64,000 nt of DNA from Schmidtea polychroa (lineage: Eukaryota). How positions within the stretch are numbered: position 1 is the first letter of the stretch; each line of letters opens with the position of its first letter. The translations under genes and the position numbers were made by a program. The stretch is taken from NCBI GenBank assembly GCA_044892525.1, contig CM097885.1, forward strand, positions 68,758,001 through 68,822,000, in the 5' to 3' direction. This document shows positions 1 to 56,179 of this stretch, one piece after another. Below the pieces are notes generated by a model that had not been told where the DNA came from, made no database searches, and worked only from the letters and a program-made list of their open reading frames with translations.

Positions 1-2
1 CT

Positions 3-743
3 ATAATTTATGATGATGGTCAATATTTATACATGAATTGCTTGAATAAGCCATTCGAAATTATATTTTCTACAGTGGCTGATGCTAAACGTCTTGGATT
101 TACCGATTTACGTAATGTATTTAATGATACAGTCAAAATAAATCTCTCTACAATTCCGAAAACTAATAATTTAGTTGAATTCAAATTTAAGCTATCATAC
201 TTTGAAATAACAGAGCATGCATATACTTTTAAAGATAATTTATATATTACAGACCTCGAACAATTACAAACTTATTTAGGTGACAATTGTAGCGATATTT
301 TAACAGTTTTTGAGCTTCAAAAAGATAAAGTATTTAGATTTAGTATAAATTCTAATCTTAGTCAAGTTAAATTTGACTCAAATTTGACAAAAACATTAGG
401 ATTGACTAAACCAGTATGTACACAAAATGAACAAATTTGTGAAGGAACAAACAAACCGAAAATCCTTAAACATCATCAGCAAATGTTCATTTACAGTAAT
501 ATCGTGGAACCAGTTATTGTTGGCGATTCTAGTGTTCCTTTAATGAAATCTATATGGATTGAAAAACATGATCAAGATGAAGTTGTACAAATCAATGTAG
601 AAAATCCCATGTATTTACCTGTTTCAACATCTTGTATAAACAATATAGAAATAAATATAAGAGATGATTCTGGTCAATTAATCGAATTTCCAAAAGGCTC
701 AAAAACTCATTTGACATTACATTTTCGTAAAATAAATGGCTAA
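3..743 (+). CDS. Polinton/adintovirus minor capsid protein (penton), 5'-partial
   Basis: C-terminal MFIYSNIVEPVIVGDSSVPLMK...MYLPV...IEINIRDDSGQLIEF...LTLHFRK fits the Polinton penton pattern. The frame is open back to position 3, so the real start may lie upstream of the ATG at 33. Confidence 0.85.
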   Translation: MIYDDGQYLYMNCLNKPFEIIFSTVADAKRLGFTDLRNVFNDTVKINLSTIPKTNNLVEFKFKLSYFEITEHAYTFKDNLYITDLEQLQTYLGDNCSDILTVFELQKDKVFRFSINSNLSQVKFDSNLTKTLGLTKPVCTQNEQICEGTNKPKILKHHQQMFIYSNIVEPVIVGDSSVPLMKSIWIEKHDQDEVVQINVENPMYLPVSTSCINNIEINIRDDSGQLIEFPKGSKTHLTLHFRKING

Positions 744-1107
744 TTCTGATATTATTAGTATGTATAGTGGTAGCCAATCTGGTGGTGATTTACCATATTT
801 TATTGGTAAACAGTACGGATCAGGATGGTTGAGAACAATAGGTAGATTTGCATTGCCTATTCTTAAACGTATCGGTAGTTTTGGTATGAAAACTGCAAAA
901 GATGTTATTATGAATGAACAGAAAATATTACCATCTCTAAAAACAAATGCTTTAGCAGAATTAGGGAAAGTTTTACCCGGGGTTGCAGGTATGTTTCAAA
1001 AACCAGCTCCAGCTCCAGCACCAGCTCATGCTCCAAAACGTAAAAGACATGGAATATCACGTATAAACAAACGAATGAAAGGACATGGAACTATATTTGC
1101 AAAATGA
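736..1107 (+). CDS. Adintovirus pX/pVI-like basic core or membrane-lytic protein
   Basis: QSGG and QYGSG motifs, amphipathic WLRTIGRFALPILKRIG, basic tail, adenain-type site MKGH|G. Overlaps penton and hexon stop/start codons. Confidence 0.75.
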   Translation: MANSDIISMYSGSQSGGDLPYFIGKQYGSGWLRTIGRFALPILKRIGSFGMKTAKDVIMNEQKILPSLKTNALAELGKVLPGVAGMFQKPAPAPAPAHAPKRKRHGISRINKRMKGHGTIFAK

Positions 1108-2324
1108 TTTGTGGTAAATCCGAATTATGTATATTTGATAGACCATCGCCCCAGGCTGTAATAGAATTTGGGGCATTTGAGGAAGTTTTTCCTATGAATT
1201 CAATTACAGATAGTAGAAACGATATCGAGTTTTATATTAATGGTTCACAAACCGAATATTTAGATTTGAACGATACTTTATTGACTGTTCAGATTAAGGT
1301 TGTAGATAAAGATAGAAAAGTTTTGGATGCCAATGCAGATGTAATACCGAACTATTTCCTGTTTCATACTCTTTTTAAAGATGCAGTGTTGGGATTTAAT
1401 AATATCAAGATTGAGGGCGGAAATAATACATTCATTCACAAGGCATTAATAGAAACTATTTTAAATTACAATTCCGATACTAAAAATACATGTCTTACTC
1501 CTATGGGTTATGGCAGTGATGATGAAATAAAAAAGTGGGTAAAAGGCTCAAAGGTTTTCACCATGTGCTCATCATTACAACTTGATTTTATGGATCAACC
1601 GAAATATTTACTACCGGGAGTTAATGTACATATTAGATTGAAAAGGTCTGATTCTGCATTATCTCTTACTAGTGCAACTACTGCACCAATATGTCAATTA
1701 GTTGATGCAAAATTATTGGTGAGAAGAGTTCGAGTAGACCCCTCTGTATTAGCAGGTCATCAATTGGGTCTTAATTCAAAACATGCAATTTATCCATTAA
1801 AAACAAAGGAAATTGTACAATTTGCTATTGCTAAAGGTGCTTCATCATTCTATAAAGAACAAATATTTGGTGACAGAAGAATGCCTAATTTTATTCTGAT
1901 AACATTTCAAAGTGAAGCACAATATAATGGATCATATACTGCGTCCAGCTCAATTTTCAAAAACTTTGGTGTTACATCATTGACTTTGTCGAAAAATACT
2001 GATTATAGAGAAACATATATTCAAGATTTCGAGAATGACAATTACTGCGCGACATATATGCAGAGTATTGTTAGAAATCTGGGTTATTTAGATAAAAATT
2101 TGAATTGCGGAATAACACTAGAAGATTTTAAAAGCAAATACCCATTTTTTACATTTGTTTTAGCCCCTGATTTTGATTTAAATCAAAGTCAATTACCACA
2201 AAACGGGAATTTACGACTGGATATAAAGTTTGCAAAAGCTATTACTGAACCAGTACATGTTATAATATATGGAGTATTTGAAAATGAAGTTCAAATTACT
2301 GCAAATAGAACTGTGTTGGTATAA
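1104..2324 (+). CDS. Polinton/adintovirus major capsid protein (hexon)
   Basis: N-terminal CGKSELCIFD...IEFYINGSQTEYLDLNDTLL and C-terminal GNLRLDIKFA patterns of the double jelly-roll Polinton MCP; 406 aa, intact. Confidence 0.9.
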   Translation: MICGKSELCIFDRPSPQAVIEFGAFEEVFPMNSITDSRNDIEFYINGSQTEYLDLNDTLLTVQIKVVDKDRKVLDANADVIPNYFLFHTLFKDAVLGFNNIKIEGGNNTFIHKALIETILNYNSDTKNTCLTPMGYGSDDEIKKWVKGSKVFTMCSSLQLDFMDQPKYLLPGVNVHIRLKRSDSALSLTSATTAPICQLVDAKLLVRRVRVDPSVLAGHQLGLNSKHAIYPLKTKEIVQFAIAKGASSFYKEQIFGDRRMPNFILITFQSEAQYNGSYTASSSIFKNFGVTSLTLSKNTDYRETYIQDFENDNYCATYMQSIVRNLGYLDKNLNCGITLEDFKSKYPFFTFVLAPDFDLNQSQLPQNGNLRLDIKFAKAITEPVHVIIYGVFENEVQITANRTVLV

Positions 2325-2737
2325 ATGTATATTGAAACACAAAAAGTTGTCATGGAGTAAGTTGTTTTTTTATACTCTGGATTTATTTAAATAGTTCTGT
2401 TCAGGTCAATAAAATCGGAAAACAGATATTGGGAAATGAATTTGTTGGAGTTTTTCCTCTTGATAAAATTCCATATTTGAGCAATAATCAAGCAATAATC
2501 GTCAATACTCAATCGTCTCATCTTGGTGGAGAACATTGGATAGCTATATATATGAAACCTGGTAATATATTCGTGTTCGATCCTATGGGTTTTTATTACC
2601 CGGCTTTGTTGATATCAAAACTACAAACAATGGGAAAACCTATTGTGTATAATAAAACTATGTTTCAAAATCCCTTGACCCAAACATGTGGTCAACATTG
2701 TTTAGCTTGGTTATTGTACAAAAAATTTGATGTTTAA
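2325..2737 (+). CDS. Adenain-family cysteine protease, probably two exons (2325-2356, 2395-2737)
   Basis: FVGVFPLD, GEHW (His), FDPMG (Asp) and QTCGQHC (Cys) motifs. Removing the 38-nt GTAAGT...TTTAAATAG intron gives MYIETQKVVMDSVQVNKIGKQILGNEF. Confidence 0.85.
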
Positions 2738-2780
2738 AGAAAAATGTTTAATAAATTTGATGTTTAATAAATGTATCCTT

Positions 2781-2968
2781 NNNNNNNNNNNNNNNNNNNN
2801 NNNNNNNNNNNNNNNNNNNNNNNNNNNNNNNNNNNNNNNNNNNNNNNNNNNNNNNNNNNNNNNNNNNNNNNNNNNNNNNNNNNNNNNNNNNNNNNNNNNN
2901 NNNNNNNNNNNNNNNNNNNNNNNNNNNNNNNNNNNNNNNNNNNNNNNNNNNNNNNNNNNNNNNNNNNN
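2781..2968. other. Assembly gap (N run)
   Basis: Run of N. Confidence 1.
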
Positions 2969-3097
2969 TATTATTATTTGTAACATAAAGACTGCCTTTG
3001 CATGAGGCATGCACAGTGCAAGTTAACAAAGGCATGACTAACAAAGGCAGTCACATGTAATTCTGACTGATTTACATTACATACATGCATGCGTGTG

Positions 3098-3188
3098 ATT
3101 GGTTGAGTGATTAAAATATTCAATGTATATGTGTGTGTGTCTATATTCTCATTGGCTGGGACAGGAAAATATTCATTCTCTTTATAAA
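3098..3188 (+). promoter_or_regulatory. Putative promoter: two CCAAT boxes (ATTGG at 3098 and 3151) and TATAAA at 3183
   Basis: Motifs lie in normal order 70-160 bp upstream of the ATG at 3261. Confidence 0.45.
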
Positions 3189-3260
3189 CATCGACAAATT
3201 TAAAATTTGTCACAATTATTCTAAATTTTTCAAATTTCGATTTCAATTTTAGAAATCTAA

Positions 3261-3925
3261 ATGGCTAACAATAATAAAAATGGAATTCTAAGAAATCTTT
3301 TGACGACAATGGGTAATTTATTTTATTATATTTTATTTTATTATTATTTTAGAACCATTCGATTGGTACGATGTAACGGAAGATGACTCGATATTAACAG
3401 TGGATAAGATCTTCGGTAAATTTATTATTATAATTTTTAATAAATTAATTTTTTTTTTTCAATTCAGAAAATGTTTACAATAGCGACGATGATGTCGTCT
3501 TTATCGGGGAAAGTAATGCTCCTAATAAGATCTTCGGTAAATTTATTATTGTTTTTTTATTAAATTATTTTTTTTTTCAATTCAGAAAATGTTTATAATA
3601 GCGACGATGATGTCGTCTTTATTGGGCAAACTGATGCCCCTAATTATGCCCCAGTTCTCAAAGAAAAAAGTAAATTTTATTATTATTTCTATTAAATTAA
3701 TTTTCATTTCAGAAACTGTTTTAAATGTCTTTAATGTTGATATTGACGAAGAAGAAATTAATGTCCTCGCATCGGATGATGGTGAAATCTGTGAGAATGA
3801 TGGGCATATCTCATCGGATGATGATCAAATCTCAGAGAATGATGGGCATATCTCATCGGATGATGATCAAATCTCAGAGAATGATGGGCAAATCTCTGAG
3901 AATGATTCCGACATGGAATCACTAT
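3261..3925 (+). CDS. Spliced acidic protein with tandem SUMO-interacting motifs (exons 3261-3312, 3353-3415, 3468-3536, 3586-3669, 3713-3925; 3' end unresolved)
   Basis: Four GT-AG introns (40, 52, 49, 43 nt), all phase 1, join an open frame MANNNKNGILRNLLTTMEPFDWYDVTEDDSILTVDKIFENVYNSDDDVVFIGESNAPNKIFENVYNSDDDVVFIGQ... A fifth donor GTAAG is at 3926. Confidence 0.8.
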
Positions 3926-4029
3926 GTAAGAAATATTTATTTTTATATATATTTTGTTTTTTTTTATTTATATGTTAAATTTGTAATAACTTATTTAAAT
4001 ATTTTGATAAAAAACTTTTTTTAAATATT

Positions 4030-4612
4030 TTAATAAAAATTATGATGAAACTTCTGAAGAAAATGATTTTATGATTTATGATGAAAATATACCGAAAAAT
4101 TATGAAGAAAAATGATTATATGTTTTATAAAGAAAATGATGAAAATATGACGAAAATTATGATGAAGAAAATTATGAATTTATGATGAAGAAAATGATGA
4201 AAATATGACGAAAATTATGATGAAAATGATTTACAACCAAAATTATGATGAAAATGATTTATGATGATATAATGAATTATGATGAAAATATGACGAAAAT
4301 TATGATGAAAATGACTTACAACCAAAATTATGATGAAAATGATTTATGATGATATAATGAAAATGAATTATGATGAAGATGTGACGAAAATTATGATGAA
4401 AATGATTTATGATGATATAATGAAACTTCTGAAGAAAACGATTTTATGATGAAAATTATTTATACCGGAAATTATGAATTTATGATGAAAATTATTTATG
4501 ATGAAAATGATGAAAATATACCGAAAATTATGAATTTATGATGAAAATTATTTATGATGAAAATGATGAAAATATACCGAAAATTATGAATTTATGATGA
4601 AAATGATTATAC
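4030..4612 (+). repeat. Degenerate tandem repeat of AAAATTATGATGAAAATGAT-like units
   Basis: Visible repetition; no frame stays open. Confidence 0.8.
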
Positions 4613-4712
4613 TAAGTTTCTGAAAGTTATTATTATCAAAATATTTAAAAAGTGATTACAAATTATAGTTATAAAATCCTTGTAGTTTGCAATGTGCATC
4701 TACAATAGTTAA

Positions 4713-4776
<64 letters not shown>

Positions 4777-4789
4777 TTAATAATATTAA

Positions 4790-4869
4790 TAATGTAGTCT
4801 ACAGTAAGCATGTAGCTACATAGTAGTCTGCAGTGGGCATGCAGCTACTTCTATTTAATATAATAATAA

Positions 4870-4919
<50 letters not shown>

Positions 4920-5135
4920 TTAATATATAAATAATAATCAGACCCCGCCTACAGTAGTTTGCAGTAAGCATGCAGCTACATAGTAGTCTGCAGTGAGCAT
5001 GCAGCTACTTTTCTTTTATATAATAATAATATAAATAATAATAATATAAATAATAATAATAATCAGACCCTGTCTACAGTAGTTTGCAGTAAGCATGCAG
5101 CTACATAGTAGTCTGCAGTGAGCATGCAGCTACTT
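4790..5135 (+). repeat. Array of TAGTCTGCAGTGAGCATGCAGCTA units separated by (TAA)n, upstream of PolB
   Basis: Several near-identical copies; each contains the inverted repeat CTGCA...TGCAG. Confidence 0.85.
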
Positions 5136-5142
5136 CTCTTCA

Positions 5143-5177
<35 letters not shown>

Positions 5178-5179
5178 TA

Positions 5180-5210
<31 letters not shown>

Positions 5211-5470
5211 TATAAATAATAATCTGACCTATCTACTAAAATCTCTCTAATATTCTATCGAATATATTAACCTATTTTCTATAATGATTTATCATCATTT
5301 GTTATATAGTTCATTTGAATTAAATAACAAATGATGATAAATCCTTGTAGAAGTAACAATTAATAACAATTAGAAAAAGAATAAAACTTTAATTTTATTA
5401 TTTAACAGGTAGACTATATCCGAACTATTGCCAATCTTCAATTGGACATAGTGATAAATGTCATAGAACA

Positions 5471-8400
5471 ATGACAAAATATTACCGAAAAAAGTTTAAT
5501 TCGGTCAACTTTTTTATATGCCCCAAATGTGTAACGAGCGAAAAAATAAAATATAGGGAATTTTTTAATAAACATCATAATCACTTAGGGCAATTTTCGA
5601 TATCAAAAAATGTTTTATTTAAAAAAATAAATAAAAAAAAATTACAAAAAAATTTATCAAAAAATTTACCAAAAAATACTATTAAAAAAGATATAAAAAA
5701 AGATATTAAAAAAGATTTAAAAAATATTAAAAAAAATATTATAAAAGAAAAAACAGATTCTATTAAAAAAGATACTATAAATATTATTAAAAAAGATATT
5801 ATAAATATTAAAAAAGATTCGATTAAAAGACCTGCTGGTTTAATTAAAAATTGCATTCCGAATAAATTATCGCGACCTGAAGTGATAGTCATCAGCAAAG
5901 ATGAATGTGTAGCTTCAACATCTTTCACACAACACGCACCCATTACACAACACGCACCCATTACACAACAAGAAGTGATAGTCATCAATGATGAATGTGT
6001 AGCTTCAACGTCTTTCAACATATGCCAAATAGGCGGCTCTTTGTTTGAACCTATGGTAGAATCCGATTTGAACGGATCGCGTAAAACTTTAAAATTTGAT
6101 ATTAGAAATCAAAACTTAGTAAAAATAGCCCTAACATCAAAAATTGAAGATAGATTAATAGAGGAAATAGAAAAGATGGGCAATGTAAAAATTCAATTCA
6201 CAATTTTAATTAAATTTGAAAAAGATGGGGAGATCCGGGATAATTATTTTTCAAACAATGCTCAAGTTTTTACATCAAACTTTATAAACGAGGGGGTGAG
6301 CAAATCAAATGAAAAGATTGAGCAATTCACCTATTTAGGAAGCGGGTGGCGAGTAGTGAATATTTTAGAAATAGATTTTATTTTAACGAAATACGCACCC
6401 GTTAGTAGATTATCCGGACATAGCTATATAAAAACCCCATCAGCATTAAAATTAAAACATGCAATAATTAATGTTAAAAACAACGACCATAAGTGCTTCT
6501 TGTATAGCATTCTTGCACTTTTAAAAAGAGAAGAAATAGGTCGTAATCACCAAAGAGCCGCCAAATATATAGAATTTTTACCTCTATTAAATTATGACGA
6601 AGACACTGATTGCCCGATGAGGCTATGCAACATTCCCAAATTTGAAAGAAAAAATAGAGATTTAAACTTGAGCATAAACGTTCTGTCTTATAAGCCAGCC
6701 AGTTCTGATTTAGATATTTCTGAGGATTATGTAGCTCACCACCCTCATCTTAATATAGTACATCGCTCCAAGGTTATAGACGGTAGACCAATTTATTTAT
6801 TACTTTTGAGTAATAAAGATAAATATCATTATACAGCCGTGACAGACTTGGACAAATTAATGAATTGTCATGAAAATGAAAATGTAAATGTTCAAATAAG
6901 GTGTAACTGGTGCCCACATTGTTTAAATGGCTTTAGATATAAGAATGCTTTCGATCAGCATGTTGCTCTATGCTGTAAAAATCAGACTGGCACAACATTG
7001 TATACACTTCCTAAAAATAAAGATTTATTATTCACAGATTACGCAAAAACAGTTACACCTCCCTTCGTAATTTATGCCGATTTTGAATCGGTTTTACCAG
7101 AACATGAAACATATCATCAAATACATTTACCCATATCAGCAGGTCTTTTATTAATTAATAATTATACACACACTAAATTTTATTATTATTTTTTTGGACC
7201 TAATTGTATTTTGGATTTTTTGAGGAAAGTGGAGGAAATTGCTGTCACAATTGTCCTGCCATATTATGATCTTGAAGGTCGTAAAGGTATGTCTACTTTG
7301 TCTTTTGCTCAGGAGCGTGCCTTTCGATCTTCCACTATTTGTTATTTGTGTAAAAAATCTATTATTAATCCTGTGAGAGATCATTGCCATTTTACAGGTA
7401 GATATGTCGGAGCGGCATGTAGGAAATGCAATGTCTCTCGCAGGATTAATAAATTGTTACCTGTTGTCTTTCATAATTTACGAGGCTATGACCTCCACCA
7501 TATTTTAAAACATGGTCTCAGTGATTTTCCCCTTTGGGAACTTAATATTATACCTACCTCTACAGAAAAATTTATATCTTTAATTGCATATATTAACAAA
7601 TTGCCTGTTCGTTTTATTGACAGCATGCAATTTGTTAATTGTTCTTTAGCAAAAGCTGTGAAAACCTTAACTACTTTTCCTTTGACTTCGTCTGTCTTTC
7701 AAGGGTCGATGATTCACTCTAAAGGTATCTTTCCATATAATTTCGCTACTTCTTTAGATGTTCTTGAATCGACTTTAGAATTACCTCCTATTTGGTCTGA
7801 TGTTACGGAAGATCAGTACGCTGAGGCTCAACTAATTTGGAGTCAGCATAACTGTAATAATTTGTTAGATTATATGTTAATCTACCTAAAATTGGACGTA
7901 TACCTCCTCGCAGATTATTTTCAGCAATTCCGCGGTAAGGCAATTGCTTACAATGGTCTGGATCCTCTTAATTTCTACGGGATTCCCGGTATGTCATGGG
8001 CCTCAGCGCTTATGACATTAACGGAACCAATAGAACTTCTGCAGGACATGGAAATGTATAATTTCTATGAGGGAGGTATCCGGGGTGGGTTAACATTTGT
8101 TAACAAACATTACACGGCTACTTCAGATGATACAGAATTATTGTACATTGATATAAATAATCTGTATGGTTGGGCTCTTAGCCAAAATCTTCCGTATGGT
8201 GATTTTTCTTGGGTGAATAATAACTTGAATGATGTTTTACTTGAATGTATGAACACGGATATTGATAACCTTCCATATGGGTATACTATGGAGGTCGATA
8301 TCGATATTCCGGAATGTGTGCATGACTTTTTGAATGATTTTCCGCTTGCGCCGGAAAAGTTGTGCCCGCCTAATTCAAAAGTTGAGAAGCTTATGCTTAC

Positions 8401-9445
8401 GCATTGGCCAAAGAGGAACTATGTTCTTCATTGGAGGCTTCTCAAATTGTATATAGAATTAGGTGCGGTTGTTGTAAATATTCATAGGTGTATAAAGTTT
8501 AAACAAGGACCTATCTTTAAATCCTACATAGACACCAACACCACTTTACGATCTCAGTCTACTAGCGAGATATATAGGGACTTGTTTAAATTGTATAATA
8601 ACTCTCTTTACGGTAAATCGGTTGAAAATTTGAAAAAAAGAATGAATTTGAGGTTGTGTAATTCATCCGAAAAGATGATAGTATACTCCTCAAAGCCGAC
8701 TTTCAGAAAGTCCATAAGAATCGATAACGATCTGATTGCGGCACATTTAGAAAAAGATGTGATTTGTTTAGACAGACCTAGCTACATTGGTCAAACAGTA
8801 CTAGATCTGTCTAAACTGCGGATGTACCAGCTCCAATATATTGATTTGGAGAAGTACAGACGCCAATATAAATGTATCATAAATATTATTGCCGGTGATA
8901 CCGACAGTTTCTTTTTGGAAATAAAAAATTTAAAATTAACAACTTTATTACCTCAGATGATCTCAGATAATTTATTGGATACGTCAAATTACGATCCAAC
9001 CCACCCCTTGTATAGTAGGAACCTTGACTCGGTCATCGGGAAGTTTAAAGATGAGAGCAAGGGATTAGGGTATTCTGAATGGGTTTTCTTACGCCCTAAA
9101 TGTTATAGTCTTTTAGGTAGTAAGGAAACAGTAAAAGCGAAGGGGGTTAAATTATCTGGGACATCAATAACTCATGAAACATATCTAAATTGCTTTAATT
9201 CAAATCAGGTGATTTCTGTACCGCAGACTAGAATAGGTACTAGAAATCACCAACTTTTTACTTTTAAAAATTCGAAAATTGCCCTAAGTAATAATGATGA
9301 TAAGCGCGCGTGGCTAGGAAAAAACTTAAGTTACGCATTTGGGCATTATTTAGGAGTTGACGAATTAAGCGAATATGATGAGGAATTCAGTGCAGCTCCA
9401 AGTCCCAGTTTTGACGACAGCGAATGGGACGAAGATCAAATTTAA
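5471..9445 (+). CDS. Protein-primed family B DNA polymerase with endonuclease VII-like insertion
   Basis: Exo motifs IYADFES, FHNLRGYD and YLKLDV; polymerase motifs DINNLYG, KLYNNSLYGK, AGDTDS and PKCY; RDHCHFTGRYVGAACRKCN His-Me finger; 1324 aa, intact. Confidence 0.95.
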   Translation: MTKYYRKKFNSVNFFICPKCVTSEKIKYREFFNKHHNHLGQFSISKNVLFKKINKKKLQKNLSKNLPKNTIKKDIKKDIKKDLKNIKKNIIKEKTDSIKKDTINIIKKDIINIKKDSIKRPAGLIKNCIPNKLSRPEVIVISKDECVASTSFTQHAPITQHAPITQQEVIVINDECVASTSFNICQIGGSLFEPMVESDLNGSRKTLKFDIRNQNLVKIALTSKIEDRLIEEIEKMGNVKIQFTILIKFEKDGEIRDNYFSNNAQVFTSNFINEGVSKSNEKIEQFTYLGSGWRVVNILEIDFILTKYAPVSRLSGHSYIKTPSALKLKHAIINVKNNDHKCFLYSILALLKREEIGRNHQRAAKYIEFLPLLNYDEDTDCPMRLCNIPKFERKNRDLNLSINVLSYKPASSDLDISEDYVAHHPHLNIVHRSKVIDGRPIYLLLLSNKDKYHYTAVTDLDKLMNCHENENVNVQIRCNWCPHCLNGFRYKNAFDQHVALCCKNQTGTTLYTLPKNKDLLFTDYAKTVTPPFVIYADFESVLPEHETYHQIHLPISAGLLLINNYTHTKFYYYFFGPNCILDFLRKVEEIAVTIVLPYYDLEGRKGMSTLSFAQERAFRSSTICYLCKKSIINPVRDHCHFTGRYVGAACRKCNVSRRINKLLPVVFHNLRGYDLHHILKHGLSDFPLWELNIIPTSTEKFISLIAYINKLPVRFIDSMQFVNCSLAKAVKTLTTFPLTSSVFQGSMIHSKGIFPYNFATSLDVLESTLELPPIWSDVTEDQYAEAQLIWSQHNCNNLLDYMLIYLKLDVYLLADYFQQFRGKAIAYNGLDPLNFYGIPGMSWASALMTLTEPIELLQDMEMYNFYEGGIRGGLTFVNKHYTATSDDTELLYIDINNLYGWALSQNLPYGDFSWVNNNLNDVLLECMNTDIDNLPYGYTMEVDIDIPECVHDFLNDFPLAPEKLCPPNSKVEKLMLTHWPKRNYVLHWRLLKLYIELGAVVVNIHRCIKFKQGPIFKSYIDTNTTLRSQSTSEIYRDLFKLYNNSLYGKSVENLKKRMNLRLCNSSEKMIVYSSKPTFRKSIRIDNDLIAAHLEKDVICLDRPSYIGQTVLDLSKLRMYQLQYIDLEKYRRQYKCIINIIAGDTDSFFLEIKNLKLTTLLPQMISDNLLDTSNYDPTHPLYSRNLDSVIGKFKDESKGLGYSEWVFLRPKCYSLLGSKETVKAKGVKLSGTSITHETYLNCFNSNQVISVPQTRIGTRNHQLFTFKNSKIALSNNDDKRAWLGKNLSYAFGHYLGVDELSEYDEEFSAAPSPSFDDSEWDEDQI

Positions 9446-9675
9446 ATAGAAAAAACTTTATATTTTTGATTTATAAAAACTTGTATAGTGATTTCATGAT
9501 TTATAAAAAATTGTATAGAAACTTTTATTTAAAAACTTGTACAAAAACCTGTATATTGTATAAAACTTGTATTTATATATACATATTCAATAAAATTTTT
9601 AATCAGATTTTTTTTTAATTTTTTAAGTATTTGGTGTTTTATTATAATTTTTTATATTTAATGGTGATTTTTATA

Positions 9676-9798
9676 TAGTCTGCAGTGAGCATGCAGCTAT
9701 AACAGTTTTTTATATAGTCTGCAGTGGGCATGCAGCTATATGTTTTATATAGTTTGCAGTGAGCATGCAGCTATATGTTTTATATAGTCTGCAGTGAG
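9676..9798 (+). repeat. Tandem ~33-bp array of the same TAGTCTGCAGTGAGCATGCAGCTA motif downstream of PolB
   Basis: At least three full copies and a partial one before the N gap. Confidence 0.85.
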
Positions 9799-9976
9799 NN
9801 NNNNNNNNNNNNNNNNNNNNNNNNNNNNNNNNNNNNNNNNNNNNNNNNNNNNNNNNNNNNNNNNNNNNNNNNNNNNNNNNNNNNNNNNNNNNNNNNNNNN
9901 NNNNNNNNNNNNNNNNNNNNNNNNNNNNNNNNNNNNNNNNNNNNNNNNNNNNNNNNNNNNNNNNNNNNNNNNNNNN
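9799..9976. other. Assembly gap (N run) inside the repeat array
   Basis: Run of N. Confidence 1.
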
Positions 9977-10232
9977 TTGCAACGGGTACTAGTCATGCTT
10001 ATTATTGTTATACATTTGATGGTTACAATTTCTATATTTTGATTGGTTATCACAATTTTATAAATGTAAAAACAAAAGTAATTTATTTATTAATAATGAT
10101 TTATACAAATAAAACCGATGAATGTGTAACACATTTGGTAACTTTATTATTTTGTCAATATTTTTTTATATATGGCATTTATAGCAAGGAAGAAATAAGG
10201 AAAAATTAAGTCCGACCGATTCCGAAATTTCA

Positions 10233-10724
10233 ATGAAATTTTTTTACAACACAGTTGAAGATTTTATAAATAATCATGATGCTTACAGTGATAAGCAACT
10301 CATAAATATTTTAAAGATTTTCAAACATTCCTCTATTGAATATTTGTTTGATTTATTTAATTATGAGAAATCCATTTTAAAGTTATCTTGTTATTTAATG
10401 TACTTAGAAAAAATAGCAGTAAACAATGATTCACTGAATGAATACTTTTGGAGTTGTATGTTTTTAAGGTTGAAACCTGGATATAGTAGATTGATTTATG
10501 ATTGGATAGCGAAAGCCGATTTGATTGAAAATAAGCTAACGAAAAAACTGAGCGATGTTAAGAAAAGGTATTTAACTTGCTCAATTTGTAAAGAAAATCG
10601 AGTTTCGGTTTTGTATTTACCGTGCGGTCACGTAATTGTTTGTTCTAAGTGTAACGAGAAGATTGTTCGCAAGTGTCAAGCTTGTTCAACACTGATTAAT
10701 GAATATCATACTATATACATGTAA
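10233..10724 (+). CDS. RING-finger protein (IAP/MDM2-like C-terminal C3HC4 RING, no BIR), Polinton accessory gene
   Basis: CSICKENRVSVLYLPCGHVIVCSKCNEKIVRKCQACSTLI at the extreme C-terminus; lies between PolB and the TIR. Confidence 0.85.
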   Translation: MKFFYNTVEDFINNHDAYSDKQLINILKIFKHSSIEYLFDLFNYEKSILKLSCYLMYLEKIAVNNDSLNEYFWSCMFLRLKPGYSRLIYDWIAKADLIENKLTKKLSDVKKRYLTCSICKENRVSVLYLPCGHVIVCSKCNEKIVRKCQACSTLINEYHTIYM

Positions 10725-10799
10725 ATAAATATTTAGTTTACCTTTGTTAATTTTACATTATTTTATTGTTTAAATAAATGTATGTTTTGTTGATTTGTT

Positions 10800-12108
10800 G
10801 AGCGTGACCAGTACCCTTGTGAGCATTACCCATAGGGGGACAAAATATTTTGTCGGATAGACTCAGAGTATATAGACTCGGTGTATATAGATTAATAATA
10901 ATAATAATAATAATAATAAGATATATGGCTCATTCGAAAGGTCTTGGATTGAGCTTTAAAATGAGCTATCGATTATTAATTTTCGTTGGCGGGAACTTTG
11001 AAAAAATTAAAAATAAAATAATAATATTTTTAAAAATAATAATATTTTTTAAAAATAATAATATGACCTTGATGAGTCATCGCGATGACTCATATGACCT
11101 TGGGAATGACCTTGGATGAGTCACGTGACCTTGAAAGTGACCTTGATGAGTCATAGGATGACTCAGATGACCTTGAAAGTGACCTTGAAAATTTTGATGA
11201 GTCATCGGCTGAGTCATATGACCTTGAAAAAAATTTTTCAAGGTCATATGAGTCATACTATGAGTCATATGACCTTGAAAATGTCCTTGATGAGTCATAG
11301 GATGACTCAGATGACCTTGAAAAAACTTTTTCAAGGTCGTATGCGTCATACTATGAGTCATATGCCCTTGAAAATGACCTTGATGAGTCATATTATGAGT
11401 CATATGACCTTGAAAAAATTTTTCAAGGCCATATGAGTCATACTATGAGTCATGGTCTTTGTTTCAGTGACCTTGATGAGTCATATGACCTTGGAAAAAA
11501 TTTTCAAGGTCATATGAGTCATATTATGAGTCATATGACCTTGAAAATGGCCTTGATGAGTCATGTTCTTTGTTTAAATGACCTTGAGAAAATTTTTTGA
11601 CCTTGATGAGTCATGTTATGAGTCATATGACCTTGAAAATGACCTTGATGAGTCATAGGATGAGTCATGGTCTTTGTTTAAATGACCTTGAAAATTTTGA
11701 TGAGTCATAGGATGAGTCATGGTCTTTGTTTCAATGACCTTGATGAGTCATATTATGAGTCATACGACCTTGAAAAAATTTTTCAAGGTCATATGAGTCA
11801 TATTATGAGTCATGTGTCCTTGAAAATGGCCTTGATGAGTCATGGTCTTTGTTTAAATGACCTTGAGAAAATTTTTTGACCTTGATGAGTCATGTTATGA
11901 GTCATATGACCTTGAAAATGACCTTGATGAGTCATAGGATGAGTCATGGTCTTTGTTTCAATGACCTTGATGAGTCATATGTCTTTGTTTAAATTTGACC
12001 TTGAAAAAAAATGTACTTTTAGACTTAGAATATTTTTGAAAATCTTACCGACGGGGGGGGGTACTGTGCTAGCGGTGCCCTGTGCCAGCGGTGCCCAATC
12101 CATCTACT
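10800..12108. repeat. Right terminal inverted repeat of the Polinton
   Basis: Contains the core motif shared with the TIRs of 49892-53255, a motif array, a G-tract and terminal CTACT. The inner boundary is approximate because the left TIR is absent. Confidence 0.75.
11064..12003. promoter_or_regulatory. Dense array of TGACCTTGA (NR5A/ERR-type) and TGAGTCA (AP-1-type) motifs
   Basis: More than 20 copies of each by eye, often adjacent as TGACCTTGATGAGTCAT. Function is inferred. Confidence 0.6.
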
Positions 12109-41438: not shown

Positions 41439-41529
41439 TAAAATTATATATATATATTATAAGAACTTTTTTCTCCAATTTCACCGCTGATATTCTTTTC
41501 CATTTTATTTATTAATATATATATATTTA

Positions 41530-46139: not shown

Positions 46140-46600
46140 ATTTATTAGATTGAGTCAAGAAGTATTATACGTGACAAAACACTTTTAATGTAGTTTATTG
46201 TTGTTCTTTACGCATCGAAAAAATGTGTTTACTACATCCAGTTTGTTGACATCATCTTTCTTTACTTTCATTGTCCAAGGTATATTCCACCCTATCATAG
46301 CAATGTACCACATTTTAAAGGAATTCCGGGTGAGAACTCTTCTTAAATGAAAATCTAGGTACCACATTCTTCCCAGCGTCGGAAATCATATTGAAAAGAT
46401 ACCCTTCACTTGAGGATAGCACCCAGATTTTTCAGCCAACTTTTACTTGGCTGTTCCGTATGCATTTCTTGTAGAACATTTTTTGGGAGTATGAAATCAT
46501 TTGTTCGTCTGCTCTGAGGTCCACTGCAAACACCGAACGCTATCGATTGGTTCCAAGAATCGGCAACAACGTTTTCTACAATCTAAAATTTTATAATGTA
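46140..46600 (-). pseudogene. piggyBac-like transposase fragment
   Basis: DEQMISY, then frameshifted QPSKSWLKIWVLSSSEGYLFNMISDAGK, resembling the PGBD DEQM...KP.K.G.K.W.L..S.GY pattern. Confidence 0.6.
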
Positions 46601-47121
46601 CAATACAAAAGCTCGAAAACACAGTTTTACTAAAGGAACTGTTGTCTCAATTCCCAAAACTATTTTTACAGCGTGTTCCAAACAACAATCACAAAATGAA
46701 TTTTGATTAAATTGATAAAAATTAATTCATCGTTTTACCCAAATATATTTATCAATGGTTTTTAATGTTTATATTGAAATATTTTTAATTTTTTATCCCA
46801 TGTCTAAAAAAGCAAGTGAACAAAGCAAGAAAATATGTTTTGCAATTCAGTGAAAAGTTTATTATCTCGCCAAACAATATGAAATTCCGCTAAACATTCA
46901 TTTTTATTGCTCAATGTTACCAATTATACAAATGTTAAAAAACAAGAGTTTATAATACCACCTGCTAACAAATTTGTTGATATGTTGACAAAGGCATTGG
47001 TATCCGTGGATATCTCACTTAAAAGGTAAAAAACAAAGAATTCAGTGGCATTTTTAGATATATGAACTTTTCACTTCCATCCGAAACTTCAATAAGAGGA
47101 TATTTTCTTTCAAAATATACA

Positions 47122-48429
47122 TGTTGGGGTAGAACTGAATTCTAGACCCACAACTTGGAATTGTGATGGAATGTGGTGGCACACAACATGCATACTCAGT
47201 ATTAAGTGTAATTAAATCAAAACATACAAAAACATCAAATAAACAATAATAATAAAGAAAACAACACATAAAACTTAAAACACCCAAATAATAATAAATT
47301 AAAACACAGCAAGAAGAAATGTACGAAAACTTACTTAAATATAAAACAAGAAAAAACAAACTTGAATCAAGGCGATTAATAAAAAGTAAAATGAAACTTC
47401 TATAAAAGAAAATTATATCCAAATTTCGACTAAAAACCCAGGACAATCCATAAAAATGAAGAAATCCATCATGGCCGTCGACCGATCCAATAAAAGTTAA
47501 AAAAAATAAATATTTTATCGAAAATCTAAAATTTTAGAAAAATTTACAAAAGTAATTTTTAAAATAAGATCTAGATTGTTCTAGAAATTCCTCAATCCAT
47601 CATGGAGGCAAATTTAAAAAATAATCGAAAAATAAAATTTTGAAAACAAAAATTACTACGAAAAAATCGCCATCAAAATTAATACAAATTAAAAATTGAA
47701 TGTTTTAGAATTAAAATAATTCGAGTTTGTTTTACTGCATCAATGCACACACACATACTTGCACGCCAAAATAAGGTATATATGCCGCCACATTTCAGTC
47801 GCATGAAACTCTTTTTTGCCAAAAATTGTTTTTTTAAATTTGATCAAACCGAATCTTCAGTTTAACACTAAGGCCTATTGATTATTTTTTTTATGTTACT
47901 GTTAATAAATTACAATTTATGATGTTCAGGGCCTTTATAAATTTTTTTTGTTTTGTTTTCTGCAAGAGTGACTAGGATCTTTGTGTACATTTCATACTCG
48001 GGACCCGAGCCAGCCTTGCATCTCATTATTTTCAACAGAATCGATGCAGGGTCCACAACCGTCTTCTCTGACCTAACATGCAAATAAAATGAAATTCTTT
48101 TAACCAGGGGACGCCACAAACTACATAGTTCGCTCCATAGAGTTGTGTGGTAATCTCCTCAATGGTGGCTGGCACAGTAATTGTGACTATGGGGCTAGCA
48201 AATTATCATAAGTAATAGCTTCGACATTACAACACTTTTTATTGTAATGTCGACCAGTAGATAACAATCGGGCTTACCGTACTGAGCTCAGTGTAGTCGG
48301 GAAAGTAGGCAAATTTTAATTAATTCGACCTTTTGCTAAACTATAAGCCTAACTTGACATTTAAAGTATCTGAATTACATAACACTAGGAGCTTAAATCG
48401 GGAAATATCACCTGACTCAAATTATCACA
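47122..48429 (+). repeat. 5' fragment of an LTR-A-like giant LTR
   Basis: TGTTGGGGTAGAACTGAATTCTAGACCC and downstream blocks collinear with 14650-15924. Confidence 0.75.
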
Positions 48430-49891
48430 TTACAATTTTAAAAAAATGTATTCAATTAATTTCTAATAAATAGCAAGTATTCATCGTCTGTCCCTTCCCC
48501 AACGGTAAACCTCGTATCCAGCCATCCACATCACCTCAATCCCCAAAGCCCTGCGAACCACAACGCTCAGTCACACAGCAGTCAGAATCGCTAAATATAT
48601 TCCTATATTGATTTATTTTATTACCAATAGCATTGCCCAGTATAATAATTAGAAATAGCCACTTGCAATGTTAAACTGAAAAGACTTAAAAAATGAAATT
48701 ATTTAATTTATTCTAAACAAGTCAATAATTAACTTTTTATTTACACACTTTAAAATTGGTTTCAAAATTTAATTATAAATTCTATTTTAAAACATAATTT
48801 AGAATAAGAAAACAAAATTCCTTAAGCCGGCATTTTTAATTTCATCGGGCATAGGATTGGTTGCTGCTGTTGTTGCTGTATTTTTATTTATATTTATAAT
48901 AAATTCATTATTATTGGTAACAGGGTGTCCTTGGTGGTAAGAAGATGGCCACTGCCAGTGGATTTGCTGCTTATAATTTGTCAACAGCAGTTTTTAATAA
49001 TTATCCTTTATCGTGTGAAAATCTTTGGATTAACGATGCAAAATCAATTCAAAAATATTTAGATAACGTAATGAAACCTATTTGTTTTTTTTCAAGTCAG
49101 TTATTTTTAAACTTTTTCGATAAGTTCTCGTTGAACTTTCATGATCAATCTCGTTCAACTCCATCTTCATTTTAAAATCTTTATTTTTTCTCATAATTGG
49201 CGTCTAAACCTCCTGTGTCCGGGTATGTAGCTAGGGGTGGAGCATAAGAGGTGTTGCCCCCCCCCCCCATATAAATTATAGATTATCAAATATAAATTAG
49301 GGATGAAATAATCTAATAAAACCTTTATTTTGGTTTTCTAATGAGAATTGTATGAGAATAAAAAAACAATGTATTTTTTAGTTAAATCTTTTTTAAATCC
49401 GAGACAGTACAACTATGCTCGCGCTACCTATTCCCGTAGTTTATCGGTCTTTTCGGCACAACAAAGTACATAGATGAGTGCCGGTTACATGTATCGTTGA
49501 GCTCGGCTACGCGCGCAAACCATCCCCGTTTCTCCGTATTTGACTAATTTATTTGTGTTAGAAATACAATGGAAGAAAAAACGGTTAAACGGATTTTATA
49601 TTCATCAAGACATTAAAGTGTTAACGACGGCGTGGATCACCGGTGGGACGTATTTGATTGTGTTATTAAACGTAATATTAGAAAATTTAACATATTCATC
49701 AAAAACATTTATTTTTAATTACAATTATGATTAATAACGCATTATAAACATAACTTTTGTTAAATAACATAAATTGCGCCACCAGATGATGCGCTGCATG
49801 AAAATCGGCGCTGGCGTGAATGTATTAAAATAAGTCCGGACGAAATTCTGTCTGAATTATTGAAGGGACAAAGATAAATTAATATTATATT

Positions 49892-50966
49892 AGTAGGTAG
49901 TTATGTGCACTCTAGATCCAGATACCCCCCTATTTTTTTTAAAAATTTTTTTAAAAGACCCCCACCACATAATTTTCTTTTAATTTTTAAAATATCCCCC
50001 CTACTTTTTTTTTTAAATTTAAATTTTTGTTTTAATTATCGATTACGTAATAATTTCATTTTTTGTTTTAATCATTGATTACGAATTTTTTTTGTTTTAA
50101 TTATTGATTACGTAATATTTTAATTTGTTTTAATCGTCGATTATGTAACAATTCCTAAATTTTTAAAACGTTGATTACGTCATTGATTTTAATTTTTTAT
50201 GTCATTATACTTGAAATTTAATTTTCTGTTAAATGAGACTATGATGTAATCAAAATTCTGAAATTTCATTTTTAGTACACCATTTTTAAATTTACACATC
50301 TTTTTAAACAAATTGAGATATGTTCACTCAAACAATATATAGATAGAATTTTAATCTCTATAAAATGACATCATTATTTACTGCAAATTCATAATCATAA
50401 CACCTTAAACAATGTATTTTTCAGCCAACTTTTACATACACACATATTTTCATCTTTTAAAAAAAAAATACAAATTATTCATCTATACTTAACTCATAGT
50501 AAATAATTATATTAAAAGACATATTAAAAGATGTATTAAAAACTAAACATTTATTAAAATCCTAGAGAAATTCGATCACTATCTAATTTCCAAATCGGTG
50601 ATATGACATCTTTCTCATCTATTTTATATCCCTGTATTGACATATTTACAAACCAGCTTTCCCCATCTTTATATTCAATTTTATATAACAAAGACATATT
50701 GCATACAAAGACACACATGACTCATCATACTTTTTAAATATATTACGTTGCGGTATTTTAAAATTTAAATTTATTTTAAAAACTTGTTTTGACGGTTAAG
50801 TTGACAAAATAAAATTATTGCACATACTTTGTATTATCATATATAGTCTATCAGACAAGATATTCTGTTCCCCTAAGGGTAATGGTCACAAAGGTACTGC
50901 TAAAACTTTAACATATTATTACACACAATGTATAAAAAATCTTATTAGTGTCCACACATGCAACAA

Positions 50967-51032
<66 letters not shown>

Positions 51033-51576
51033 TTCAAAGTATTATAATTATATATAGTCCGAGTCTATCCGACAAGATATTCTGTCCCCCTATGGGTAAT
51101 GGTCACAAAAGTAAAGGTCACAAAGGTAAAGGTCACAAATGTACTGTTAAAAATATTCAAGACAGAACTTTAACAAAGAAATTCTAAATATTATACTTTA
51201 AATATACACTAAAATTTATTAACACATTGGGTAATGGTCGCAAAGGTAAAGGTAACTAATGTACTGCTCGCAAAGGTACTACTCACATTCAACGTGTCGT
51301 AAATTATTTTCAAATACAATTTCAAAGTATTATTATTATTTATTATTAAAATTAAAATTATTATTAAATTCTGACCAACTTAAATCAATGAAGGGGTAGG
51401 ACAAAAATATATTACGTTGCGGTATTTTAAAATTTAAATATATTTTAAAAAACTTATTTTGACACTAAAGTTTACTTATTTAACAAAGACATAATTATTG
51501 CACATGCTTTGCATAAATATTATTATTATTTTTTGAATTTTCAATATTTTCTTTCAAAGTATTAACACGCGCGGGA

Positions 51577-51621
<45 letters not shown>

Positions 51622-52177
51622 GTATTTCCCCTATAATAAGACCTACCTAGAAAATAAGACCTAGCATGAATTATTCGCCCACAAAAAATATAAGACCTAC
51701 CTTGAAAGATCTGTTTACTTATTTACATAACGAAAAAAATAGTAATTTTAATTCAAATTAGCCATAAATATATGCTTTAAACTTTACGTTGAATGTGAGT
51801 AGTACCTTTGCGAGCAGTACATTAGTAACCTTTACCTTTGCGACCATTACCCAATGTGTTAATAAATTTTAGTGTATATTTAAAGTATAATATTTAGAAT
51901 TTCTTTGTTAAAGTTCTGTCTTGAATATTTTTAACAGTACCTTTGCGACCTTTGTGACCTTTACCTTTGTAACCATTACCCAATGTGTTAATAAATTTGA
52001 GTGTATATTTAAAGTATAATATTTAGAATTTCTTTGTTAAAGTTTTGTCTTGAATATTTTTAGCAGTACATTTGTGACCTTTACCTTTGTGACCTTTACT
52101 TTTGTGACCATTACCCATAGGGGGACAGAATATCTTGTCGGATAGACTCGGACTATATATAATTATAATACTTTGAA

Positions 52178-52246
<69 letters not shown>

Positions 52247-53255
52247 TTGTTGCATGTGTGGACACTAATAAGATTTTTTATACATTGTGTGTAATAATAT
52301 GTTAAAGTTTTAGCAGTACCTTTGTGACCATTACCCTTAGGGGAACAGAATATCTTGTCTGATAGACTATATATGATAATACAAAGTATGTGCAATAATT
52401 TTATTTTGTCAACTTAACCGTCAAAACAAGTTTTTAAAATAAATTTAAATTTTAAAATACCGCAACGTAATATATTTAAAAAGTATGATGAGTCATGTGT
52501 GTCTTTGATATGCAATATGTCTTTGTTATATAAAATTGAATATAAAGATGGGGAAAGCTGGTTTGTAAATATGTCAATACAGGGATATAGAATAGATGAG
52601 AAAGATGTCATATCACCGATTTGGAAATTAGATAGTGATCGAATTTCTCTAGGATTTTAATAAATGTTTAGTTTTTAATACATCTTTTAATATGTCTTTT
52701 AATATAATTATTTACTATGAGTTAAGTATAGATGAATAATTTGTATTTTTTTTTTAAAAGTTGAAAATATGTGTGTATGTAAAAGTTGGCTGAAAAATAC
52801 ATTGTTTAAGGTGTTATGATTATGAATTTGCAGTAAATAATGATGTCATTTTATAGAGATTAAAATTCTATCTATATATTGTTTGAGTGAACATATCTCA
52901 ATTTGTTTAAAAAGATGTGTAAATTTAAAAATGGTGTACTAAAAATGAAATTTCAGAATTTTGATTACATCATAGTCTCATTTAACAGAAAATTAAATTT
53001 CAAGTATAATGACATAAAAAATTCTTATAAAAAATTAAAATCAATGACGTAATCAACGTTTTAAAAATTTAGGAATTGTTACATAATCGACGATTAAAAC
53101 AAATGAAATTATTACGTAATCGATAATTAAAACAAAAATTTTAAAAAAAAAGTAGGGGGGGATATTTTAAAAATTAAAAAAAAATTATGGGGGGAGCTCT
53201 TTTAAAAAAAACAGGGGGGGGGTATCTGGATCTAGAGTGCACATAACTACCTACT
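49892..53255. mobile_element. Non-autonomous palindromic mini-Polinton (3364 bp)
   Basis: Termini AGTAGGTAG...CTACCTACT; perfect 6-bp TSD TATATT (49886-49891, 53256-53261); TIRs ~49892-51296 and ~51786-53255; no genes. Confidence 0.92.
51619..51710 (+). repeat. pogo/Tc2-like MITE end in the mini-Polinton spacer
   Basis: TACCGTATTTCCCC...ATAAGACCT repeats. Confidence 0.45.
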
Positions 53256-56179
53256 TATATTGTAATATATTCTATGTAATATACATTGTTAATAATTAAT
53301 TATACATTTGTTAGATAAGTATTTTTTTCTATTTTTCTGTGTCAACTTTTTACACTGTTCGATGAATAGCAATAATCAATAATTTTGCCACTCTCCCTTA
53401 AGCTGAAATCTTGGCTATGTCATTTATATGTTTTATTTTAGTTAAATTTTCGGTTCTTTTGAGTTATAAAGAAGATAAATATATTTTCAGTCGGAATTTT
53501 ACGAAGCATTTATCCATGGACACAAAAAATTATCGTTTATAATAAAAAGAATTTCCCTATAATCACATCTGTTTTTGGTCTGCTTGGAGTTGAGATTTCA
53601 TTTTTTTTCTTTGTGGTTAGAAATCAAAAACTAATTTTCGGATTTGCCTTTACAATTATTAATTTTATTAATAAGTTTATTTTGAAAAATAAGGTAAGTC
53701 AAAAAGAAAATCGGAACTATAGCAGGATGTTAATGAAGGACTTTGCTTTTTGGTAAAAAAAGATTTTAGAATAAGTTTCTGTAAGCTGTTTTTAAATCCG
53801 TCTTATAACATTAAGCGTTTTGTTTAATCAATGGATTATATTAATTTATGTACTTTTTCCCTATGTTCTTATTAATTACAGGTTTTTATTTTAATGTGTT
53901 CATTGAGTTTATTCATTAAGTTTTATTATGACAAAAATATTTTATTGTAAAACGCCAAACAGTCTCGATGAAAAATATTTGATATTGAAGATTTACGAAT
54001 TTGTGATTTTGAGTGAGCTGAAATAATGAACTTCAGGCAGATATGAATAAAGCAATCAGTGTTGTAAGGAGGGTTCTGATTTTATTAGCAGTAAAGTTAT
54101 TTATGGAAATGAAGATATATTAAAGGCTTGTAGCTTTGCATTTTAGTGTTGTGTTTGTTTCACTGAGGTTTATTTAGAAAGTATTTTGCATTATTACATT
54201 TTACGGATAAATATTCTAGTGAAAGCATATTTTGATGTTTCCATATTTCTTCTATTTATATTGAATAATAACAATTTCTTGTTGCTTGTGTTCTTCTTCC
54301 AGTTTTTTGCATATCCTTTTTGTACATAGCGATATTACCTTACTGCATCAAAAACGGATGTCAATTCTTTTTTTAATTTCAATAAATTTGAACAAAATTA
54401 TAATTAATAATAGACATTAGTGAAAACCTTATATAATAACGTTTCGAACCATTTCTGGTTGTTCTGGTGTAGTCACAATTGTAGAAATTATGTAGTAGAA
54501 ATTATGTGTTTTTTCTCAGTCTTCCGTATTCTCGTCTCGTCTTTCAATTAGTCTTAGATTTAATTTTTTCTCCTTTTAAATATCTTCATTAATATTACTA
54601 CTGATAATGGAAATTATATTTTGTTAGTTGAAAAATGAGTTCATTGGAAAATATTTGAAATTTAAAGAAAGAGTTCACGATGATTTTGACAATGAAGTTC
54701 TACAAACTACAAATGAAATACAGTAAATAATTATTTTTATAAATCTCGATTTAATTTCTTCTAGGAATAAATTGAATGATTTGAAAGAAAAAATAGTAAA
54801 ATTCGAAACTCAATAATTTAATAAGAGGTTTTGAATGGATTTATTAATTTTGGAAATTGTTTTTTGACTTTTTTATTTTGAGTAACATTTTTGTTGTTTT
54901 CGTAACATAATTCCCTATTGCCAATGTCACAACCTAAGAGAGGATCTCTGTGATAAATATCCTTTAATTGCAATCACTAAGCTTTGATAATCTCTTTTGT
55001 AGTTAAAATCGTAAATTGTTTAAATATATAAACCTTTTCTTACCAATTATAGGGTGGCTCGACTTTGGATGTGAACATTTAATTTCTAGCACTGAACAAG
55101 CTGTTTAGATTTTGTTGTAAATTGAGCCGTTTTTAAATAGGGTATGAAATTTAGTTGAATAAATATAAATTATAAAGTAAATTCATTGAATATTTTACAA
55201 AAAATACAAATTTATTGTTATTTTAGATTTATAAATTATTACTATTTGATTTGTCAATCTCACGCACAAGCCGGTTGTAATATTTGCTAAAAGTTTGTTC
55301 GCAGATATCCGTTGAACCTAGGGACTTGCACATTTTAGTGTATTATTCAATAATGACGAACAAGGCGTTTAATCGCAACAATGATAAAAATTTAATAAAT
55401 CTCCCTTATTAATTTCGTTTCTCATTTCCATATTATTTTGGAGATCAATAATTTCAAGTTGGACTGCTTCAGGTGCATTTTCAGGTAGAATGGCAAACGG
55501 GCAAAAGTTTTGTTTTTTAAATTTGAATGTTGAGTTTTTTATTGGCGTCCCTCATGCTATAATCTCTTTCCCGTTTCCAATTTCTCATGTTATCATGATA
55601 ATGGTTTCCCAAAATTCACTTTGTTTACTTTTCTTTTTGTTTACTTAACTCGAGTTTCCCTTAATTAATTAATTAACGATTTTCGTTTTCTTGTATTTCG
55701 ACCTTTTTTGAACATTCTGATGAATCTGTTCTCAGCATGGTCTTTCCCATTATCTCATCTGCATCTTACCTGTTTTTCAAATTTTAATTCGATAATTTGT
55801 TGATGTCCTGATTTTTAATTTTCCAATATTCCATCTTTAATCATTTTTAATTCAACAACTTTAACATGAAAATCGAGTATTAAAAGTCGACTTTTAATCA
55901 TCCATTTTTTCAATGTACAATGGCTTTAAATCTGAAGAAAGCTTTTCAGAAATTTCTTTGTAATTAGGAAAGTGAATGTAATTCCTTGATTTTAATTGAG
56001 CTTGAATAAACCTGATTTTCATTGAAATGACAAAATAAGGATATGTAGTTCAGTTAACATTTGATTTTTTTCCTATAGTCGAGTAATTAACATGTTTAGA
56101 TGAGTAGTTATGTCTGTCAAAAAACTAAGTCGAATAACCAATCAGAATCTTATTTCGGGAATCTGTTTATATTTTTCAA

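Follow-up and report, generated by a model that had tools for sequence, protein, structure and literature searches.

Can DNA that encodes nothing, and that consists nearly entirely of two inverted copies of one sequence, have been mobilized as a unit by the machinery of a virus-like transposon? The question is raised by a gene-less, hairpin-shaped element of 3,364 bp (49892-53255) in a window of Schmidtea polychroa DNA, the window being the whole stretch of 64,000 nucleotides that was analysed. On balance, we read this element as a gene-less, non-autonomous foldback of the Polinton/Maverick kind, a young copy of an abundant family that a Polinton integrase put into an intronic repeat.

Architecture of the element

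The features on which the argument depends are:

49886..49891, no strand: left copy of the target-site duplication (TSD), TATATT, 6 bp
49892..49930, + strand: left 39-nt tip, AGTAGG..., finishing in a C run; identical in the two ends; similar to the tip of the Polinton at 12108
49892..51295, + strand: left arm, 1,404 bp
50024..50199, + strand: subterminal 29-34-bp tandem units with TTACGT(A/C)A palindromes; 65 bp longer in the left arm than in the right
50845..50896, + strand: inner module, first copy, 92% to the second copy
50968..51032, + strand: (TTA)22 run, with its mirror at 52178-52245
51010..51121, + strand: inner module, alike at 83% of 116 nt to 10804-10919 at the right end of the gene-bearing Polinton
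51296..51785, no strand: spacer, 490 bp, made of family-type sequence, a (TTA)14 run and then a one-ended piece from 51620
51786..53255, - strand: right arm, 1,470 bp
51941..52069 (about), - strand: unit of 129 bp, doubled in the right arm and single in the left by arm comparison
53256..53261, no strand: right TSD copy, TATATT, 6 bp

The outermost 39 nt at 49892 and 53255 are perfect reverse complements. Among TSD lengths of 4-11 bp, 6 alone fits, and the similarity of the arms stops outside the TSD; two 6-mers from the surrounding DNA would match by chance with a probability of 7.5e-4, the frequency of TATATT being 2.2e-3. A TA-target (Tc1/mariner) reading of the ends, also considered, fails at the right end.

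Aligned with each other, the arms show 6 substitutions in 1,317 columns and 11 indels (99.5% identity where aligned), and together they make up 85% of the element. The outer ~230 bp, rich in C runs, T runs and short tandem units, has 3 substitutions in 144 columns and 7 indels, as against 3 in 1,173 columns and 4 indels in the inner part (Fisher p=0.02, with an alignment that is ambiguous in C/T runs). We take the TTACGT(A/C)A palindromes of the tandem units to be bZIP-like sites. Within the spacer, 51375-51514 is family-type sequence, of which 51405-51514 is 80% like arm positions 50736-50834. A separate piece at 51620-51710, inserted at a (TTA)n run, begins TA/CCGTATTT and carries three TAAGACC repeats; it is one-ended and is presumably a Tc2/pogo-type transposon end.

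No open reading frame in the element rises above shuffle level, the longest stop-to-stop frame having 86 codons against a mean of 74 (200 shuffles; 95th percentile 94), and an Rfam search of the element returned nothing better than E 0.96. When the element is folded as DNA, its first base is predicted to pair with its last, with 1,312 long-range pairs in all. An earlier note on this DNA had described AGTAG termini with a perfect 6-bp TATATT duplication, near-identical inverted arms of ~1.4 kb round a spacer of ~0.5 kb, an absence of genes and an ability to fold into a panhandle, and the figures above bear it out on each count, the last by prediction. Its report of a right-arm duplication of ~120 bp was right as to the extra unit, which measures 129 bp, and probably wrong as to direction: 15 of 129 positions are mismatched between the two right-arm copies, as against 1 of 129 between the inner copy and the left arm, so that loss of one unit of an old tandem pair from the left arm appears more likely than a fresh duplication in the right.

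Insertion site and integrity of the assembly

The element interrupts a repeat:

49590..49891, no strand: left part of the target, an unclassified high-copy repeat that resumes at 53262; loose end at 49891

Evidence from contigs was drawn from the assembled contigs of 4 runs aligned to 48900-50960, an interval that takes in the left flank and 1,069 bp of the arm next to it (19 runs were listed and 12 contain part of the stretch; the alignment covers 4 of those). In run X1, depth over the target repeat reaches 4e4-3e5, compared with 446 in unique flank, and 10 contigs depart from the window at 49891 and continue with 28 of 30 letters identical to 53262-53291, giving a single TATATT with the element absent. 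This empty form was seen for X1 alone among the 24 loose-end rows listed of 1,633. The flank being a high-copy repeat in its own right, these contigs probably represent other copies of the target rather than an empty allele at this locus. Contigs that carry the target repeat with a single TATATT and no element mean that the insertion scar is real. The earlier note had named in advance, as counting against it, an empty site lacking a single TATATT; the empty target form in the 10 X1 contigs has one.

The same contigs bear on a rival explanation that we regard as very improbable, namely that the inverted structure was created during assembly, by a fold-back read or by arms equalised in polishing. 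Such an artefact could go unseen in so far as no record spans the element, the short contigs having been compared with 48900-50960 only, and the near-private letters found in both arms (see below) could stem from polishing. However, the flanks are not mirror images of each other and join into the empty form, and the left junction is crossed without difference by contigs of X1 and X4, which reach 22 and 24 letters into the element (below the 31-letter threshold). Taken together, the empty form, the junction contigs and the non-mirror flanks make a fold-back artefact unlikely for the ends. Further in, the arms differ by 11 indels of up to 129 bp, and right-arm forms recur in independent contigs, with 3 extra C at 49924 in 18 contigs of X1 and the context of a 13-bp insert in 7 contigs of X5. 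The 6-bp TSD proves only that the two ends integrated jointly; a longer element may have lost its middle since, an account to which we return below.

Polinton ends in the same window

Two further AGTAG ends in the window belong to Polinton sequences:

1..12108, + strand: right part of a gene-bearing Polinton (context, separate from the element), ending ...TCTACT at 12108; left end and TSD beyond the window
1104-2324, + strand (Polinton): putative double jelly-roll capsid, 406 aa; predicted fold with pLDDT 89.5, best match E 1.7e-16
5471-9445, + strand (Polinton): family-B polymerase, 1,324 aa, with family-B motifs
within 1..12108, + strand (Polinton): adenoviral-type protease
10233-10724, Polinton right end: RING-finger accessory gene (PF13920)
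36818-39611: second Polinton derivative, in which inverted arms (36818-37358 and 38909-39311) enclose ~290 codons from the C-terminus of a polymerase; AGTAGA tip at 39611

None of Pfam, PHROGs and PDB sequences names the window's polymerase, which was assigned through its family-B motifs and 49% identity to a polymerase-sized protein of the related locus L031; a weak endonuclease-VII-like match covers its residues 607-661. Among relatives, L002 and L031 encode an rve integrase and an A32 ATPase. A capsid search of viral contigs produced 39 pattern matches, 0 of them confirmed by alignment.

The tip at 12108 reads AGTAGA...GCAC...C-run. Scored against the element's tip, it takes 2nd place among 109 other AGTAG sites, beaten by a single chance site, and surpasses 99.5% of 18,132 stretches of background; a first local-alignment scan had placed it only about 10th-12th of 111. 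Behind the tip, the inner module recurs over 116 nt at 83% and with unchanged orientation; its distance from the tip is 1,253 nt in the 12108 Polinton versus 1,178 and 1,115 nt in the element. This shared module may be a separate repeat. A further copy of the module lies at 41041-41142 with no tip nearby. For about 1 kb of the arm the window's Polinton offers no counterpart, and since the remainder of the arm is unmatched, the 12108 Polinton is a cousin of the element and not its parent.

In the second derivative, 215 of 287 residues of the polymerase fragment are identical to the polymerase at 5471. Its left tip and TSD were looked for and not found, and the likeness of its 39611 tip to that of the element is not significant (7%). 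It resembles a halfway stage from full to gene-less forms. Arrays of TTACGT(A/C)A occur in two different end families, at 50024-50199 and 53047-53136 in the element and at 39333-39549 in the 39611 end, with none in the 12108 end; 9 of the 11 distinct sites in the window fall in the element's two ends and the 39611 end, for a motif that was picked post hoc and whose sites lie within tandem units. Each of the two other AGTAG ends, at 12108 and 39611, has a C run in its first 60 nt and borders on Polinton polymerase sequence.

These ends weigh against the idea, which we consider quite improbable, that the element is a foldback of a cut-and-paste superfamily (IS3EU/GingerRoot, a 6-bp hAT-like group or the Galileo/FB type) whose Polinton-like ends arose by chance. 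Foldback/Galileo elements typically have long arms with internal repetition, which counts for this idea, as do the modest likeness of the tip to that at 12108 and the chance that the inner module is a separate repeat. A TSD of 6 bp is the Polinton value, and the other eukaryotic group named with 6-bp TSDs, IS3EU/GingerRoot, has ends TA..TA or TG..CA (PMC10045372, in excerpt). That group could likewise have made the duplication, but the AG..CT ends of the element conflict with its termini; moreover, the 12108 and 39611 ends begin AGTAG with the nearby C run and the adjoining polymerase sequence just described, and the 39611 end has the post hoc TTACGT(A/C)A arrays in common with the element's tips. 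The 6-bp stagger together with AG..CT ends suggests a Polinton integrase (PMC10045372, PMC8097293).

Several observations concern other parts of the window. The right end of the 12108 Polinton holds at 11060-12003 a 93/279-bp tandem array with 36 of the window's 46 TGA(C/G)TCA sites and 30 of its 31 TCAAGGTCA sites, motifs that in our assumption resemble AP-1 and nuclear-receptor sites, the motif of the 12108 end presumably being bZIP-like; judged from the motifs, the array is a possible enhancer array. A caspase-domain piece lies just past the Polinton end (12685-13077), a hAT transposase in two frames at 26042-27945 and a retrotransposon gag at 63107-63748. Two unclassified pairs of dispersed repeats are 80% alike (41525-41841 and 55545-55851) and 68% alike (14650-15360 and 47122-47827).

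An abundant family with matching arms

The arm is plainly an abundant, high-copy repeat. Relative to unique flank, contig depth summed across the arm body comes to 1,141-2,074x in X1, 92-278x in X4 and 710-1,722x in X5, and over the tip 366x, 39x and 223x, respectively, ratios that are not copy numbers. Contigs of the arm body are mostly 90-99% alike, and spacer-type context appears in 26 X1 contigs (27 of 30 letters like 51375-51404). No second full copy and no other insertion site with its own TSD was seen in the aligned contigs (left flank and 1,069 bp of arm, 4 runs). The exact 39-nt tip has 0 matches in viral contigs and 0 in metagenome contigs, and no gene-bearing element with that exact tip was seen in these two sets or in the window; the element, the Polinton end and the 39611 end gave no BLAST match at E 0.01 and no matching tips in 71 of 71 related metagenome loci.

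At 16 of 17 variable arm positions (taken from 40 rows listed, with 399 more), both arms carry the same letter. At 50383 and 50786 the arms share a letter where >99% of the X1 depth has another. Such rare variants common to both arms suggest that copying took place between the two arms once this copy had parted from most of the family, a pattern that assembly polishing could mimic. A reading of the letter at 50453 as a change unique to the left arm was also considered and rejected, X1 depth for that letter being ~8x that of unique flank.

These observations bear on the account deferred above, in which a longer element (a gene-bearing Polinton with ~1.4-kb terminal inverted repeats (TIRs), or a larger foldback) integrated, its middle was deleted later at the locus and the 3.4-kb form is a dead remnant. 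Long palindromes are deletion-prone, the arm length falls within the range of published TIRs, a 129-bp unit has probably gone from the left arm, and from 51620 the spacer contains a one-ended piece resembling a transposon. In addition, the independent module copy at 41101-41142 aligns 7 nt beyond the arm boundary on the left side only, so that the 51785/51786 joint is the derived one. Against this, 3 substitutions in 1,173 columns of the inner part point to a recent equalisation of the arms, the spacer includes family sequence and no gene remnant, and depth over the arm body exceeds that over the tip and is very high, beyond a few helper copies. We consider later deletion unlikely on this evidence and keep as the more likely reading a gene-less foldback that would have integrated in its present form.

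The host gene and read-through RNA

The element and its target repeat lie within a host gene:

42247-54780: spliced dynamin-family GTPase gene (PF00350), with exon matches to P0121
49068..54627, + strand: host intron containing the element, 5,560 bp, GT-AG

We take this gene to be mitofusin-like. P0121 matches one exon at 97% and others at 47-72%, and is a close relative or paralogue of the host GTPase. Among the runs containing part of the stretch, none is listed as RNA. A contig of run X7, a run only guessed to be RNA, covers 48924-49067 and runs on at both ends into neighbouring exons, the downstream exon starting at 54628 (29 of 30 letters); a contig that joins exons across 49068-54627 makes the element intronic. 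With the element in an intron of a spliced gene, read-through hairpin RNA is plausible, and pre-mRNA from the insertion-bearing allele would contain a 1.3-kb hairpin. Since nothing but the tip and one module is common to the arm and the window's Polinton end, such RNA would mostly match the element's own family and not the genes of a helper.

A proposed route of replication and integration

How might a gene-less palindrome spread? We propose that the element would be excised or copied out, that a displaced single strand would snap back into a panhandle, and that the duplex end of this panhandle could serve as origin for the protein-primed polymerase of a helper. Copying through the panhandle would keep the arms alike, with which the shared rare variants fit, and the helper's rve integrase would insert the duplex with a 6-bp stagger. 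The first such element may have arisen by internal deletion, or by a template switch that capped one parent end with an inverted copy of itself; both would leave the same sequence.

A bolder version, possible and offered tentatively, sees an abundant gene-less copy-back satellite of an endogenous virus-like element, an integrated equivalent of a defective interfering genome. Its panhandle would be replicated by the helper's protein-primed polymerase with the arms re-equalised at each round, it would compete with the helper, and its intronic hairpin RNA would act against the ends of its own family.

The published model of Polinton replication and integration rests on sequence alone (PMC4196379, in excerpt). 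If a gene-less, nearly all-arm family spreads in trans and copies rare variants between its arms, it would supply natural evidence for the racket-like intermediate. Setting the element's ends beside sister ends (the first ~40 nt, the C run, the subterminal palindrome arrays and the inner module) narrows the candidates for origin and integrase signals to a few. Elements of this sort would escape published surveys that take Polinton proteins as their starting point, and their genome share may therefore be underestimated. If the element is merely a deleted remnant, it represents ordinary decay.

Comparison with known systems

The element resembles Polintons/Mavericks in its 6-bp TSD, its AG..CT ends starting AGTAG, its long TIRs and the shape of the racket-like single-stranded intermediate proposed for them (PMC8097293, 10.1101/2023.08.22.554363 and PMC4196379, each in excerpt). 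Maverick TIRs measure 46-1,447 bp, and the terminal motif of vertebrate Polintons/Mavericks is (AGT)2, with (AG)3 also found (PMC8097293, in excerpt). The element's TIRs of 1,404 and 1,470 bp lie within about 100-1,500 bp; its tip, AGTAGG, has 5 of the 6 letters of (AGT)2 and is neither that motif nor (AG)3, and the local Polinton ends read AGTAGA. Unlike Polintons/Mavericks of 13-25 kb, it is 3,364 bp long, 85% arm and gene-less, with none of pPolB, rve integrase, capsid, ATPase and protease. The autonomous-family end in the same DNA, its tip and module at 10804-12108, is related and not identical. The earlier note saw here a minimal cis-requirement, which goes too far: arms of 1.4 kb match the longest ordinary Maverick TIRs in the 46-1,447 bp range (PMC8097293, in excerpt) and narrow nothing. 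Maverick expansions have been reported in Dugesia (10.64898/2025.12.11.693146, in excerpt).

Among other transposons, Foldback/Galileo elements and MITEs have long internally repetitive inverted arms and no coding capacity, like the element, and differ from it in TSD length and ends. MITEs are short, of a few hundred bp with short TIRs; the element, at 3,364 bp with 1.4-kb arms, is far larger, and foldback describes it better than the label MITE-like that it had been given.

Non-autonomous Polinton families were reportedly described by Kapitonov and Jurka in 2006, and 'N1' in Repbase names means non-autonomous. One such family, Polinton-1N1_DR, appears by name in PMC9341505 (in excerpt), and another, Polinton-N1A_NV, is said to encode a capsid (PMC11296320, in excerpt), so that N-type names need not mean gene-less or palindromic. 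On the reading preferred here the element, like these Repbase families, has Polinton ends and relies on a helper. In the titles and abstract openings searched, gene-less palindromic Polintons are not described, nor are they in passages of PMC6431247, PMC12220804, PMC8504770, PMC5499653, PMC4028283 and 10.1101/2025.02.07.637071; Repbase, Dfam or supplements may already describe such families.

A similar shape occurs outside transposons. In copy-back defective viral genomes an inverted copy of one end faces that end across a short loop, and Esteban et al. reportedly set out in 1997 a template-switch mechanism for the palindromic derivatives of phi29. Short palindromic DNA derivatives of this protein-primed phage are on record (PMC2175359, in excerpt). 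With these derivatives and copy-back genomes the element has in common an inverted end round a short loop and, on the route proposed above, a protein-primed, strand-displacement system; they are free replicons, whereas the element is integrated, with a TSD, in a genomic repeat family. Non-autonomous Polintons are a known category, and a gene-less foldback that is nearly all arm is a little-described variant of it.
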